Positions 21,608 to 27,600 of a DNA stretch of 61,615 nucleotides are shown here, piece by piece. Position numbers and translations under genes: made by a program. The first letter of the stretch is position 1, and each line of letters starts with the position of its first letter. A model generated the notes under the pieces. The model had not been told where the DNA came from and searched no databases. It saw nothing but the letters and a program-made list of their open reading frames with translations. Source of the DNA: Planctomycetaceae bacterium (lineage in GTDB: Bacteria; Planctomycetota; Planctomycetia; Pirellulales; PALSA-1355); the NCBI GenBank assembly GCA_005773095.1, contig SXHT01000107.1:1-61615 (forward strand). Reading direction: 5' to 3'.

Positions 21608-24600
21608 CTACGCGACAAAGCGCGCAAAACGGGATTGCACCCACGCGAAAAAACGCGCAAAACGGGATTGCACCCGCATTCGAAGGTCCTCGTCCAAGGG
21701 ATCATTTAGTAGCAGCGTTTCATCGGCAAAGACCATTTCGCGTACAAACTTGTCGTCGTAATAATTGTGGCGCCTAGCTACCGATGATTGGTTCAGCTTT
21801 GGCGATTCCGAATCAGTTGCCTCGACCGCTTGTTTAAGATCCAGCAGCTGATCAATAAGTTGCGTTCTCATACGCAAATGGTCCACTTCAACGGACCACG
21901 CGTCGAATGTTTTTGATGGAGTGGAGAGTTGTTGGACGTCTGACTTGAGTCGAATATCTGTAGTCCTTAGGACCGGGCTATCGTTTCCAGTCATCAGTAC
22001 CGAAGTCCAGTTTGGCGCCGGTTTAATAACCATTGACATGCTGTCGATTCCAAGTTTTTTCAAGTTCACGATCAAGTCAGCTTCGCCGACGAATCCGTTG
22101 CTACTCGCGTCAGCGCTGGCGGAGCGGTCCAGCAACGACCCTCCGCTGACCGGGGTGAATAATCCAACAGTTGCCGGGGGTGAACTGCGCCCCCAGTCAG
22201 CCAATATAAGGTTTAGGGCGTATTGACCGACGAAGCCGTCGCCGCTGGGATCACCCAACTGGCGGTTGCCTGCTGGGACGTTTCTTCCCCAGTTGTCCAG
22301 AACGAAATTAAGGTCGTCCTGACCGACAAATCCGTCATCGTTAAGACCCCCGACAGAAGCATGAACCCGTTGTCCCCAACCACCTAAGACGTGGTTCAAG
22401 TCGTCTTGGCCCACGAAGCCGTCTCCATTCCAATCGCCCTTAAGGCCGTTGCCGCTGGTGACGTACTGGCCCCAGTTTTCCAAGACATCTCTCAGGTCAT
22501 CCTGACCGACAATTCCGTCACTGTCGAGATCGCCCGCGTCATTGTCATGATTCAGCAACGTGACGTCCGGCGGGTTGATGCCGCGGTAGCGGCCATCGGC
22601 GCTTTGCGCCCAGGCGGTGACGATGGTGTAGGTTTGATCGCCGTCGACGAGGTCGTCGTTCAGGCCGGTGACGCTAATCACTTGCGGCGTGTCCCAGTTG
22701 TCCGGCGTGAAGGTTAGCCGATCGTGGGACAGTGCGCCTTCGCTCATGTCGGTATTGTGCAGCGAGAACGAAACGTCTGCGGTCGGACGGGAAGTGAGAA
22801 CAACGGAAAATTCGGCCATTCCGCCGTTCTCGGTGGTCGTCAGCCCCGTGGTCGGCGCGATCAGAATTGCAGCCGGAGCTCCGCCATCGTTGTCGAGGTT
22901 CTTTAGCAGTACATCGTCCGGATTGATCCCGTGATAACGGCTGTCGAGGCTGGTGGCCCAAGCCGTGATGATGCGATAGGCCACGTCGCCGTCGAGCCTG
23001 GTGTCGTCCACGCCGGTGACGGTGATCGTTTGCGGCACGCTCCAATTGTCGGGCGTGAAGGTGACGCTGGGGGCCGAGAGCGTGCCTTCCTTGGTGTTCG
23101 TGGAATTCAGCCGGAACGAGACGTCGCTGGTCGGCCGGGCCGTCAATACGACATCGAACTGCGCCGGTGCTCCGTTCTCCGTGGTGACAAGTCCCGATTT
23201 CGGCGTAATGAGAATGCCGGGCGCGGCCAGGCCGTCGAATTGGACATTGTCGATAACGACGGTGCTGTCCAGCGCGCCGAAGCCGAGCAGGTCGAAGTAC
23301 AAAGTGACTGGTTTTGCGTCGAGCCTCAAACCGTTCAGATCAACGACGACGTCGAACGACCCAGTGGCGGGCAGCACGCCGCCCGATGACGGCACGCCGC
23401 CGACAGAGACGCGAGATCCGAAGAGTGCCCGGCGGTCGTGCTGAATGTTTAGAAGTGCGTCGGTCCGGGCCAGACCGCTCGGCAGATCGACCATTGACAG
23501 CATCGTCATGGCGTCCAGCAGCGCGACTTCAAAGGCGTCTGGCGGATTGAGCGGAGTGGCGCCGAGGTTCAGGTCCTTGACGGTAAAGCGCAGCGCGGTG
23601 GCGCCTTCTGGAACGAAGAACGACTGCGAAAAGCCGGTGAATTCACGTGCGTCTTCGGCCAGTGTCGCCGTGCCGGCGATCACCGAGCCGGCGCCGCGAA
23701 CCGTCCAGCCGAACGCGGGATCGAGGGCATTGCTCGTGTCGAACGCGCCGTTGAGGAGCGACTCGTGCGGAGCAGCGAGCGCCGCGGCGGCCGACAGGGC
23801 GGCGGTGAGCAGATTGGGCTGTGCGAAAATCGACGTTGGCACCCAGCCGCTGGTGGACAGAGCTTGCGCCGAAGGCTGCCAGTCCGCGGGGCCGGCCGCG
23901 TTGCCGTTTCGATCAAGCCCGCGTACCGCGCTGATGATCTGCACATCGAGCGCGGACGGGAGCTTGCGGACCGATGGCGACAGCCGGGAATTCATCAAGT
24001 CGTAGGGATAGAGCTCGTCGTCCAAGTGTTCACCGTTCGTGGAGAGCGTGGCGGTGAAATCGGGGCCGACGAAGAGCTGTGAGCCGCCGATGGTTTGCGC
24101 GAGGTGGTTGTCGAAAGCTGCGATGCCGGGCATGAAGCCGGCCAGGTGGCCTAGCTCGTGCAGCAGCACGGTGAACAAGTCGTATTTGCCGAGGGCAGGT
24201 CCCGCGGTGGCTTGAAACGCGTACAGGCCGAGCGCCTGGTCGAACTCGGAATGGAGGAAGACGGACGGATCGAGGAACCAGCCTGTGCCCGCGGCATCGA
24301 TGTCGATCACGATCACTCCGTTTAAAAGTGCGTCATCATCGCCTTGCGTGGCAACGCGGGCCTCGCCCAATTGACCAGCCGGCAAGTCTTCGACCACGAC
24401 AGGAATGCCCAAAACCAACGGCGAACCCGGCACCAGTGAGCCCCATAGACTGGCCGCCGCGACGTGGAGGGCCTGCACATCGGATGCAGTAATCGCGATT
24501 TGGCGAATTTGAGTCTCTTGACGTAGTTCCCCGAAAGAGAGAAAACTCGTCGTCCCCATCAGCGGAGCTCTGAGGAGATTTTCCCAACCGCCGGCGGCCT

Positions 24601-27600
24601 GCAGAATGTGTTGTGCATTCTGAAGCTGCACGGCGCTTATGCTAGGTGGATCGTACACCCTCACGCGCCACGCGCTATCGACCCCCCACTGCCAGTCAAA
24701 GTCCAGCCCAATTCGGCGCAGGCCGACTTGAATTCTTTCCGCTCTCTCGATTGCCCTAGCGGCGAAAGGTGAAGACAAATCCATTTGACCATAAATCGAC
24801 CCATTAAAGGACAGGCCAGGTTCTCCAGGGATGAAATCGAAGTCTCTAAAACCTCGCGCCAGGTCGGTCCGGATGACGAGTCTGCCGTCCGCAAGATTGC
24901 TAGCACCGCGAAATTCGAGCAAGCCCAACTCATCATACAGCTGATAGCCCCTAATAACCCGAAGTTCGTCCTCTGGACTAAGCGTATTCCTAAATATCTT
25001 TGCTGCTGTATTCCTTTCGCCGATCGTCTCAAACACTCTGGCGTTCGCTCCTTGTCCCACGAATCTTAACTGCCCTTCTCGTGTGCCGACGACGATGTTC
25101 CTGCTCGCGGTGGCGATTTGGGTTCCGCTTTTTGACACGGCAGTCCTGACGGCTCGCGTCGCTGCGGCGGCCCCGGTTACGGTCGTGATGATATCCACGA
25201 TCTCCATTCCGGCATTGAAGTAGTCGCCGGCCGTTAGACTTTTCCAGCCGGTGGACTGAACCTTGCCGCTCGCATGGCCCAGTTTAGAACCAAGCTTAAG
25301 AAAGTGACTGACCACACCGAATGGGTCCAAAATTTGGACGATAGCTTTTCCGGGCAGGCCCTTGGATTTCACCCAACTGTCGAATCGATTGCCAAAATCG
25401 CCTTGTGAGTACCAATTCCACAATCCACGGCCGCTGCCTGCTTCCAATTCTTGCTGGCCGATGCGCTCTAAAGAATTCTGATAGTTCTGCTCCTCCTTTG
25501 CCTCCTGAGCGAGGGCCTTGTTGATCCTTTCCTGCATCATGCGAACTTGCGTTTGATGCGAGAGCGGCTGCATGAAGACGGCCTTCCGGATGTCCTGCTC
25601 CAGCGCTTGAAATTGGGGCGTGTGGACATACGGGTTGGGCTCGGGCACGAATTCCACGGGTATACCGGCCATCAAGGACGCGCCATCGCCTGTGTCCATC
25701 GTGCCGCCGGCGCCCTCCGTGCCACCGCTGACATTTCCCATGCCGCCCTGTGAGCCACCAAATGAGTTGGCTTCCGTCGGCGCGTGGCCGGTGAGATCGA
25801 CGTAGCGTAGCGGATTGCTGTAGGCATACAGGTAGCGCTGCAAGCTGGCGGGATTGTTGCTTTGGCCGAGGTACGAATCCTGGCTAAGGAAGGTACCAGT
25901 TTGACTGTCGTAGTAGCGGGCGCCGAAATATTGCAGACCGGTCTCTGGATCGAAGTAGTGTCCCGTGTATTGCAGCGGATTGTCCGACGAGCCGACCGTG
26001 TGTCGAACGGTTCCCCAAGCGTCGTAATCGTAGCTGACGCGGGTTTCGCCCGCGATGCTGGTCAAGTTGACGACGCTGCCCAGGCCATCCATCGAATAGA
26101 ACAGGCTGGTGCGATCGCCGGACGTGGGATCGACCTCGGTCCGCGAGACGAGGTTATGGCCGTGTTCATACTTGGCCGTGGTTTGACCGGCTGCGTTGTA
26201 CTCCAAATAGGCAGCACGCTGGTCATATAGATAGCGAGTTTCGCCGGTTGACGAAATCTTCTTTACCCGCATGCCGTCGGCGTTGTAGTCGAACCGGGCC
26301 ACGCCGCCGGATTCGTCGGGCGCTTCCACGAGTTGGTCGCGGATGTTGTAGCGGAAGTTCGCGACGGACACGGGCTGATCGACAGTCACGATCGGATTGC
26401 CGTTGACATCCAATTGAACGGAGATTTCTCCCGTAATCTTGAGCGTGCGATTGCCATTGGCGTCGTAATCGTAGGCCACACTTTCGGCTGGATTGACGTG
26501 GTCGATGACGCTGCGGTGGCGATTGATGCGATCGTAGTCGTACTGCCGATCGACCAGGTTTGTCGGTTCGAGCGGGTCCGTGCCGATCTCGCTAAGTCGC
26601 TTGCCATTCGCGTCGTAGGTGTAAGCCAGCTCACCGCCAGCTCCATAGGTGACGTGGACGAGCCGGTCGAGGCGATTGTATTCGTACGTGGTCAACTCCG
26701 GCGAGCCGCCATTGAAGTCGTGCTGTGTGGCAGTTTGGCTGAGCCGGTTGCCGTTGGCGTCAAACGCGTATTGGAAGCGAGATATGAGCTGGTCGGTAGT
26801 CGGCGGCACGCCCACCGCGCCAGCATGATTGACAAGGTCGACGAGCCGGTCGGCTCGATCGTACGAGAACTCGGCGACGACTCCATTGGGATAAACGGTG
26901 GACTTGAGTAGATCGTCGGGCCAGTACTCGTAGGTCGTGACGCCCGCCTCGCTGGTTACGGAAGTTAGCAGGTTTCGCTCATTGTAGGCGTAGCTGGTTG
27001 TATGGCCGTCCGGGTCTGTGGATGCGGTGCGATTGCCGTTGCGATCGTACTGGTAACTGATGGTCTTGTTGTCGTAGTTTGTTGTGCTCTCGAGGCGCTC
27101 GAGCAAGTCGAAAGAATACGTGGTGAGTTCCGTCACCGTGGCTGCGGCTGTATGCTTAACCTCGCGCATCGAGGTCAAATGATCGTTGTTGTCGTAGCTA
27201 TAGGTAACAGAATTCGGTTGATAGTCGAGCCCGCGTTCGGTCGCGTTGGAAAATGTCTGCGTCTCAACACGGTTGCGATAGTCATAGGTCATTGCGGTCC
27301 GCTGGCCTTTGGGATCGATGACAAGCGTGGTGTTGTCGGCCGCGTCATAACCGAGTTGCGTATGCAGGGCGGTAGCCTCATCGCCGCCTGCCAGGGGATA
27401 GAAGCCGTCGCCGCGGGGATTGCTGCCTCGAGTCACGCCGTTTGCAAGATCTCCCGGCACCAGGTGCTGGAACGTGTCTATCAACCGATTGCGGGCATCG
27501 TACTCATACGTAACCAGGTTGCCGTTGGCGTCCTGTTGAGCGATTTTGTTGCGGTTGGCGTCGTAGACATATCGCGTGATTCCGCCGCCTCGGAGCGATT

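Follow-up and report, generated by a model that had tools for sequence, protein, structure and literature searches.

A probable kinase-fold module in an exchangeable internal slot of a giant planctomycete Rhs exoprotein

Background

In the usual picture of Rhs and other polymorphic toxins, a protein ends in a variable C-terminal tip and an immunity gene lies next to it. The Rhs/YD members of this group, such as the Rhs effectors of type VI secretion systems and the TcC proteins with their hypervariable regions, are laid out as DUF6531, a shell of YD repeats, a core and then a deviant region that is exchanged. Here we report on a giant gene of this kind from Planctomycetaceae bacterium (assembly GCA_005773095.1, contig SXHT01000107.1; the whole stretch analysed, 61,615 nucleotides long, is called the window below), in which the exchanged segment is an internal module. 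That this module has been swapped into a polymorphic slot is very probable; that it is an exchangeable kinase-fold effector in a giant planctomycete Rhs exoprotein, with the full mechanism set out below, is the reading that we favour on balance. An earlier reading of the DNA letters (the sequence-only reading) had singled out positions 24600-25780 of the minus strand, which encode approximately residues 9560-9953, as a low-GC cassette directly behind the Rhs core.

The gene follows the Rhs/YD layout from DUF6531 through the shell and core to the deviant region, and P0001, a conventional Rhs protein, ends in a payload that is homologous to the module. It is unlike the described Rhs/YD toxins in that the variable module is internal, with about 1,000 residues of domains on its C-terminal side within a post-core region of 1,391 residues, that neither an immunity gene nor orphan cassettes are found with it, and that the host protein is 10,950 residues long and carries adhesin-like domains. 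MARTX toxins have internal effector domains that are shuffled by recombination and lie beside an autoprocessing protease, and they have no immunity gene. By analogy from general knowledge, their general layout is similar, with an exchangeable domain inside a giant exoprotein and directly N-terminal to a protease-like module; however, whole-protein Pfam scans of the giant protein found neither RTX repeats nor a cysteine protease domain, and the flanks here are an Rhs core with an aspartyl autoprotease motif and an HExxH module, a putative protease. Teneurins resemble the locus in that their YD shell is followed by further folded domains that necessarily lie outside the shell, and the teneurin profile PF25023 (TEN_YD-shell) matches P0001 as well as P0002, the closest relative of the giant protein. 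In teneurins, however, the post-shell part is about 200 residues long and not polymorphic, whereas here it comprises 1,391 residues with an exchangeable module.

Two kinds of kinase effectors also bear comparison. The minimal kinases NleH, OspG and HopBF1, whose known members enter other cells and have no immunity partner, are the best structural matches of the modelled module; they have the same size (about 160-180 residues) and an alignable Gly-loop/β3 region. Unlike them, the module shows no significant overall sequence similarity to the group, has [D/E]-x-Q in place of D-x4-N and a β3 lysine that is unconserved by manual register, and occurs in Rhs proteins of environmental bacteria rather than among the type III secretion system (T3SS) substrates of pathogens. 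The Tox-Peptide Kinase domain (Zhang et al. 2012, PMC3482391), for which no immunity protein is listed, is the only kinase-type polymorphic toxin domain in that survey and is unrelated to the module: it belongs with relatives of lantibiotic synthetase kinases (motifs DxH, YKP[KR] and DxHxEN), comes from Firmicutes, uses PVC-type export and is not linked to Rhs, and none of its motifs occurs in the module. A full-text literature search for Rhs together with NleH/OspG/HopBF1-type kinases returned nothing relevant.

Results and discussion

An exchanged module between two conserved anchors

The window (60.0% GC) is dominated by one minus-strand open reading frame (ORF), whose domain order according to Pfam and NCBIfam runs from a planctomycete-type N-terminus through Laminin_G_3, CARDB, a region of He_PIG, Big_9, cadherin and dockerin matches and a beta-propeller to DUF6531, the RHS/YD repeats and the core (Table 1). 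The core contains SQDSYLG and ends in NPLRYVDLTGH at residue 9559, where YVDLTGH is a variant of DPxGL and where the TIGR03696 match also ends, so that the region behind it does begin directly after the Rhs core, as the sequence-only reading had placed it. An Asp is found at both core positions that we take, from the consensus, to be the autoproteolysis aspartates, and we regard these as candidate cleavage sites only. YD/RHS repeats behind DUF6531, an Asp-containing core terminus and an exchanged, compositionally deviant variable region are thus all present. The variable domain, however, is not the C-terminal tip, because residues 9990-10950 (961 residues) come after it, and the first 370 or so of these are conserved in the orthologue.

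This orthologue-like relative, P0002, comprises 2,378 residues and is encoded on a contig (L003) of an NCBI metagenome-assembled genome (MAG; GCA_975198705.1). In tblastn comparison the two genes are collinear over residues 5068-9772 and 9990-10360 at 53-55% identity with no alignment in between, and opposite residues 9773-9989 of the window gene the slot of P0002 holds an unrelated sequence of about 225 residues. Similarity to relatives declines from the end of the core onwards: with P0002, sliding identity is 60-70% in the Rhs core, 23-40% in the region before the module (residues 9596-9772, the N-half below) and about 10% in the module itself, and it returns to 55-75% in the HExxH module. 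The N-half is common to both proteins at about 35% identity and is fast-evolving but not replaced. The sequence-only reading had treated about 390 residues as a single cassette; in fact the replaced unit spans only about 217 residues, and the N-half is a conserved, fast-evolving linker. In L003 the orthologous giant gene (positions 1-15137) is called as three ORFs in three frames, with breaks near nt 2957 and 7966, which are either frameshifts in a pseudogene or assembly errors.

Two further planctomycete loci have other occupants. In a Pirellulaceae MAG (L008), the alignment is collinear over residues 7602-9563 (47% identity) and 9994-10408 (34%), and an unrelated insert of 388 residues lies between these blocks; here the N-half is also replaced, by an analogous but unalignable region, and the same HExxH/jelly-roll module follows. 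An Anatilimnocola MAG contig (L004), truncated at its 5' end, carries yet another sequence ahead of this module. Taken together, these sequences delimit a hypervariable slot that has a conserved anchor on either side: the Rhs core on the N-terminal side and the HExxH/jelly-roll module on the C-terminal side. The idea of a swapped-in polymorphic-toxin tip therefore holds as far as the swapping is concerned, given the replacements in P0002/L003 and L008, but not as regards a terminal position. Two points weigh against regarding the slot as one for effectors: its polymorphism is thinly sampled, in three to four loci, and Pfam and PDB sequence searches with the occupants of the P0002, L008 and L004 slots found no known toxin, so that the term effector slot rests on the architecture.

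Composition of the exchanged segment

Residues 9560-9953 have a GC content of 0.558 and a GC content at third codon positions (GC3) of 0.627, compared with ORF means of 0.617+-0.021 and 0.742+-0.037 in windows of 394 codons, and the lowest-GC window of this size in the whole ORF begins at residue 9601. Within this region the swapped module stands out with a GC3 of 0.562 (z = -3.75) between flanks of 0.674 and 0.758, and the lowest-GC3 window of 217 codons begins at residue 9793. Third codon positions account for most of the dip (GC3 0.56 versus 0.74), GC1 and GC2 being nearly unchanged. A two-breakpoint segmentation of GC3 delimits residues 9658-10050 (0.588 versus 0.757) with a likelihood ratio of 41.6, the maximum among 30 permutations being 17. 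The composition dip is real and not due to chance. A flat GC profile had been named in the sequence-only reading as what would speak against a cassette, and the sliding computation shows the dip, at the minimum of the ORF; the GC range of 43-50% given there, however, came from selected lines, since the 14 sixty-base lines between 24600 and 25400 have a mean of 54.4% and a minimum of 43.3%, with four of them at or below 50%, and the YD repeats have 58.9%.

The low-GC3 tract in the window gene is wider than the non-homologous core, as expected if the module was imported with parts of its homologous flanks. In L003 the replacement coincides with a sharp GC3 trough (0.51-0.54 versus 0.81-0.88 in the flanks), whose change points at nt 13386-13970 lie within 24-66 nt of the edges of the homology gap at 13362-14036.

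A rival explanation is that amino-acid usage or relaxed constraint lowered the GC locally, in a fast-diverging spacer that has no effector role. In its favour, the N-half also has a lowered GC3 (0.674) and evolves fast without replacement; GC drops still further in the C-terminal tail of the ORF; and the insert of L008 differs little in GC3 from the rest of its gene, which is itself lower in GC. The dip, however, lies at third codon positions, the change points in L003 coincide with the homology breakpoints, the module is predicted to be a folded domain, and it can be aligned to the tips of other proteins, its specific homologues, but not to the slot of the orthologue, which argues for replacement rather than drift. 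We give hardly any credence to the spacer explanation.

A rare payload family with a kinase-like fold

When 1.84 billion cluster representatives were searched exhaustively with HMMER, three matches were obtained, P0001, P0002 and P0003. The only homologues of the swapped module are the C-terminal tips of P0001 and P0003, which makes a family of three members among about 15 billion proteins. P0001 is a conventional Rhs protein of 2,354 residues in which the domain forms the last 190 or so, after DPRGL and a linker of about 85 residues, and P0003 is a C-terminal fragment in which the reading frame runs on to the contig end. The homologous domain corresponds to residues 9789-9965 within the swapped segment, and the module is 31-38% identical to these tips (E 4e-16 for the tip of P0001 against the window in pairwise tblastn). 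All members share VGQG..RV[FY], GLL[KE]F[HR]G, GFR, [D/E]-x-Q-[WY]-G and R-[VI]-x-D-P-P. A word-indexed search of 5.8 billion proteins gave no match for the cassette, and with the family profile it retrieved only P0003; no relatives were found with a profile of the C-half in metagenome contigs or with one of the N-half in a genome scan, and the module had no tblastn match in plasmids or phages. The absence of a recognised toxin family, stated in the sequence-only reading, stands: Pfam and NCBIfam contain no family for the cassette, its halves or its relatives, and PDB sequence searches with the cassette, as a single sequence and as a profile, yielded nothing meaningful.

That reading had also seen a weak, pattern-level resemblance to protein kinases in the motifs VGQGANARVF, AAKIF, GLDFDWQWG and RVRVYDPP. 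The motifs are present as described, and the resemblance extends to the predicted fold. A single-sequence AlphaFold model of the whole 373-residue cassette had a predicted local distance difference test score (pLDDT) of 38 and was discarded. From the alignment of the three family members, AlphaFold2 produced a best model with pLDDT 67 and a predicted template modelling score (pTM) of 0.68, in which the elements are ordered as β1, Gly-loop, β2, β3, αC, β4 and β5, followed by α, β, β, α and α. A Foldseek search of the PDB with this model placed NleH2, NleH1 and OspG on top (E 2e-4 to 4e-3, probability 0.98-1.0, 160-171 residues), followed by B-RAF, CK2, CDK2, HopBF1 and hundreds of eukaryotic kinase domains, and a second library, BFVD, returned protein kinases of phages and giant viruses. 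A profile-profile comparison by hhalign, with an NleH/OspG profile built from annotated records, aligned the Gly-loop/β3 region over 28-33 columns (P = 0.005, and 0.0018 after trimming) and paired VGQGANARVFE..AAKIF of the module with IGKGGNAVVYE..VLKMF of NleH. On these models and alignments, a protein-kinase-like fold is likely.

Several observations weigh against this assignment. Only two of the five AlphaFold2 models exceed pLDDT 60, the other three lying at 40-44, and residues 86-102 and 137-141 are below 50. The full-length template modelling scores (TM-scores) in Foldseek are 0.33-0.45, with 0.33-0.40 for the top matches NleH1/2 and OspG, below the usual same-fold threshold, at a root-mean-square deviation of about 10 A, and the tight alignment is limited to the N-lobe (about 4 A over about 80 columns). 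The profile match does not extend into the C-lobe, where global and low-threshold runs gave an unreliable alignment, and at E<=10 no Pfam family, including PF22303, the precomputed family listed for NleH homologues, matches the module, the tip of P0001 or P0003. Hence one may ask whether the kinase call is an artefact of modelling and searching, in which case the cassette would still be swapped and would be a toxin of novel fold or an unrelated domain. An alignment of just three sequences, a mean pLDDT of 67, three poor models out of five, TM-scores below 0.5 and the lack of any Pfam, NCBIfam or PDB sequence match are what an artefact might look like. Against this, two independent structure libraries yield almost exclusively kinases, the best of them minimal kinases of the same length (160-176 residues), the profile-profile comparison independently aligns the Gly-loop and β3 at the matching position, and the order of elements is that of the kinase topology. 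We therefore consider an artefact quite unlikely.

Whether a kinase-like fold would also transfer phosphate is a separate matter. The window copy has a Gly-loop, a β3 lysine (K9821), αC acidic residues, an acidic residue with Gln, and Asp-Pro-Pro after a β-strand, all in the order expected of a kinase. Position 9922 is acidic in all three family members, Q9924 is invariant, and D9937, the candidate counterpart of the DFG Asp, lies 13 residues beyond Q9924, a spacing that we take to be equal to that of N171 and D184 in PKA and treat only as a lead. Two observations count against an active kinase: D-x4-N is absent, with [D/E]-x-Q in its place, so that the family could be catalytically unconventional or inactive; and the position of K9821 is, by manual register, Arg in P0001, which retains the Gly-loop, and in P0003, though MAFFT alignments disagree. 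Kinase-fold enzymes with non-kinase chemistry exist. SidJ, for example, is mentioned in PMC9950578. The module could likewise be a pseudokinase, a binding module, or an enzyme of AMPylation, glutamylation or other nucleotide-dependent transfer, as the Arg at β3 in two of three members, the replacement of D-x4-N by an acidic residue and an invariant Gln, and the failure of the C-lobe to align with the NleH/OspG profile might suggest. The ordered set of elements in the window copy argues against such a reading, as does the payload position in P0001, which points to an active effector rather than a scaffold, and we think a fold without phosphotransfer rather unlikely. That the module is an active protein kinase is a tentative proposal.

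The question of immunity

As the sequence-only reading had observed, neither a stop nor a small ORF follows the region, and the frame remains open for about another 1,000 residues. Three options had been offered there: immunity encoded elsewhere, immunity fused in-frame, or a target that is not self. In-frame fusion is disfavoured. The HExxH/jelly-roll module was rejected as a fused cognate immunity domain, since it is constant while the cassette changes and in unrelated phyla stands behind S8-like and M74-like domains; and because the homologous domain fills the swapped segment, there is no room for a second domain within it. Short ORFs overlapping the region (24661-25032 on the minus strand; 24785-25069, 25547-25753 and 25620-25805 on the plus strand) were also rejected as hidden immunity genes, as they occur at background density, the GC-rich window of 61.6 kb containing 293 ORFs of at least 60 residues.

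The neighbours of the other family members were considered as well. The sequence-only reading had suggested looking for the cassette on other Rhs C-termini and taking the adjacent gene as an immunity candidate; the cassette does form the tip of P0001, but the gene that follows is not immunity-like, starting 8 nt downstream and encoding at least 949 residues with no family match and an N-terminus that resembles a signal peptide by eye. Behind P0003, the called ORF at 506-976 of its contig (L002) is a low-complexity tandem repeat of about 35 residues (..GGRRFTAAL..FRADV.IRPP.VMRT..), which probably reflects a DNA tandem repeat of about 105 bp rather than a gene. Within the window there are no orphan copies of the cassette or the core. 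Next downstream of the giant ORF, within a low-GC stretch, lies the gene of a DUF4291 protein (20292-20927, minus strand, E 5e-60); it was rejected as an immunity gene because its product belongs to a widespread family predicted to be ADP-ribosyltransferase-like; a 2025 survey (PMC12522546) describes DUF4291 as a predicted atypical member with a diphtheria-toxin-like fold.

Hence we found no plausible immunity gene at the window locus, beside P0001 or beside P0003, and no neighbour common to the three occurrences. For this reason a non-self target fits best among the three options. Polymorphic-toxin-like proteins without immunity genes have been inferred to target eukaryotes, and such immunity-less effectors can have their toxin domain at an internal position (PMC3482391). 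Host proteins are the targets of all known NleH, OspG and HopBF1 kinases, and the activation of OspG depends on a host E2~Ub conjugate (PMC9950578). The alternative is an antibacterial toxin with immunity in cis, provided by the HExxH module, or from an unlinked gene. Classical Rhs payloads are indeed antibacterial and paired with immunity proteins (PMC3482391), and within a few kb on the downstream side there are small genes, among them one with a phosphatase domain (16537-17652). However, the invariance of the HExxH module, its occurrence behind other enzymes, the lack of space in the swapped segment and the lack of a shared neighbour all speak against an antibacterial toxin, which we judge very unlikely.

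A possible mechanism

Under the reading that we favour, of an exchangeable kinase-fold effector, the content of the slot would be exchanged by recombination between the Rhs core and the HExxH/jelly-roll anchors, and the present occupant would be a domain of about 190 residues that was imported from a lower-GC source and whose family is otherwise found at the C-terminal end of Rhs-type proteins, as their payload. According to the models, it most likely has a minimal protein-kinase-like fold of the NleH/OspG/HopBF1 type, and it would probably be an ATP-dependent protein-modifying effector, a kinase or related transferase. Its target may be absent from the producer or may require a target-cell cofactor, and would be non-self and possibly eukaryotic; either condition would explain the missing immunity gene. 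The giant protein would be exported, with a MacB-type transporter and an HlyD-family adaptor as the candidate route. Autoproteolysis of the Rhs core would cut at residues 9559/9560, so that the exchangeable payload would consist of the linker and the kinase-like module, about 430 residues, and the HExxH module may process or anchor the C-terminal side, by analogy with effector release in MARTX toxins. Delivery is a difficulty for this proposal, as canonical encapsulation of the whole post-core region of 1,391 residues by the Rhs shell is not plausible. A stronger version, in which the locus exemplifies a new modular architecture with an internal slot between the Rhs-core autoprotease and a metzincin-like HExxH module, double-crossover cassette swapping, MARTX-like proteolytic release on both sides and a new [D/E]-x-Q kinase-fold toxin family that is directed against eukaryotic grazers or hosts and so requires no immunity, is unlikely.

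Downstream modules and gene neighbourhood

The HExxH module shows only weak astacin- or matrixin-like zinc-motif matches, and a metagenome scan with its profile found no relatives. The jelly-roll-like domain accompanies it in 13 loci, and in L003 the giant gene terminates directly after this domain. The pair recurs in four further loci (L005, L006, L007 and L009, with the match at about 10001-11100 in each). In MAGs from other phyla (Rhodocyclaceae, a deltaproteobacterium and an unclassified bacterium) it stands after a subtilisin-like GTSxAxP domain, and in a Gemmataceae MAG after a weakly matching Peptidase_M74-like domain (HxxxxxxD...HxH). From these sequence occurrences, the pair may be a general module placed behind enzymatic domains in giant exoproteins. 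The last 160 residues of the window protein (10791-10950) form a tail with GC 0.492 and GC3 0.531, lower than the cassette, which has no family match and at whose end the peptide VQSRFARF occurs twice; GC stays low in the adjoining intergenic stretch of about 680 bp (20928-21607). This tail may have been acquired as a second tip, or it may reflect read-through into non-coding sequence.

Upstream on the same strand, the ORF of a DUF4915 protein (54457-55083) adjoins the start codon of the giant ORF, and beyond it lie a fused MacB-type ABC transporter with ABC_tran, MacB_PCD and FtsX matches (57402-59816) and an HlyD-family adaptor (59913-61271), both also on the minus strand; together these three are a candidate dedicated export system. 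A few kb downstream are a gene on the plus strand for an ARPP-1 (ARG and Rhodanese-Phosphatase-superfamily-associated) protein (17954-18901) and, on the minus strand, the phosphatase-domain gene mentioned above, in which a low-molecular-weight phosphotyrosine-phosphatase domain is fused with SUI1. We mention this phosphatase solely for its proximity to a putative kinase payload. Farther along, at 13317-15041 on the minus strand, the translation reads as a GspE/PilB-type secretion ATPase with an N-terminal universal-stress-protein-like domain.

Table 1. Features of the giant gene, with positions in the window (residue numbers of the encoded protein in brackets)
Feature	Position	Strand	Remarks
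Giant ORF (10,950 residues)	21608..54460	-	Planctomycete-type N-terminus (..LEDRQLLA); post-core region 1,391 residues
DUF6531 (7655-7727), usual predecessor of the Rhs shell	31280..31498	-	PF20148, E 5.5e-16
RHS/YD-repeat shell (about 7728-9559)	25784..31279	-	RHS_repeat E 1e-57 to 1e-61; YD_repeat_2x E 1e-39
Rhs-associated core (9479-9559)	25784..26026	-	TIGR03696, 66.1 bits, cutoff 32.5
Gly-rich linker (9560-9595)	25676..25783	-	From the sequence
N-half (9596-9772), predicted helical/Gly-rich pre-cassette region	25145..25675	-	Low-confidence helices; orthologue comparison
Swapped module (9773-9989), about 217 residues	24494..25144	-	No homology to the slot occupants of P0002/L003 and L008
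Predicted minimal protein-kinase-like domain (about 9797-9964)	24569..25072	-	AlphaFold2 pTM 0.68; Foldseek NleH, OspG, HopBF1 and other kinases
Gly-loop-like VGQGANARVF (9801-9810)	25031..25060	-	Aligns with NleH1 IGKGGNAVVY
β3-like AAKIF (9819-9823), K9821	24992..25006	-	Aligned with the lysine of NleH VLKMF
Candidate catalytic loop GLDFDWQWG (9918-9926)	24683..24709	-	Presumed mapping
RVRVYDPP (9932-9939), invariant D9937-P-P, candidate DFG-equivalent Asp	24644..24667	-	Presumed mapping
HExxH module (9990-10200)	23861..24493	-	HELGHLAGF at 24134-24160 (residue 10101); 53-57% identical to P0002
Jelly-roll-like domain (10201-10410), conserved	23231..23860	-	Named from its sequence pattern
C-terminal extension, absent from P0002	21611..23230	-	Two Calx-beta-like domains 22541-23230; dockerin-like repeats 22091-22540; low-GC tail 21611-22090

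Conclusions

What is novel here is an Rhs polymorphic effector with an internal slot together with a previously undescribed family of kinase-fold payloads, to the extent that the graded evidence above carries each part. An exchangeable unit between two anchors implies that cassette exchange operates at internal positions of Rhs proteins too and not solely at the tip, and the roughly 1,000 residues beyond the module raise the question of how a payload in such a position is delivered. With this module the known Rhs payloads gain a candidate of kinase fold, one that its rarity, three members among about 15 billion proteins, has made invisible to annotation pipelines. If the module is active, minimal kinases of the NleH/OspG/HopBF1 type would extend from pathogens with a T3SS to environmental Planctomycetota, and interactions with eukaryotes would be indicated as a driver of the giant genes of planctomycetes.

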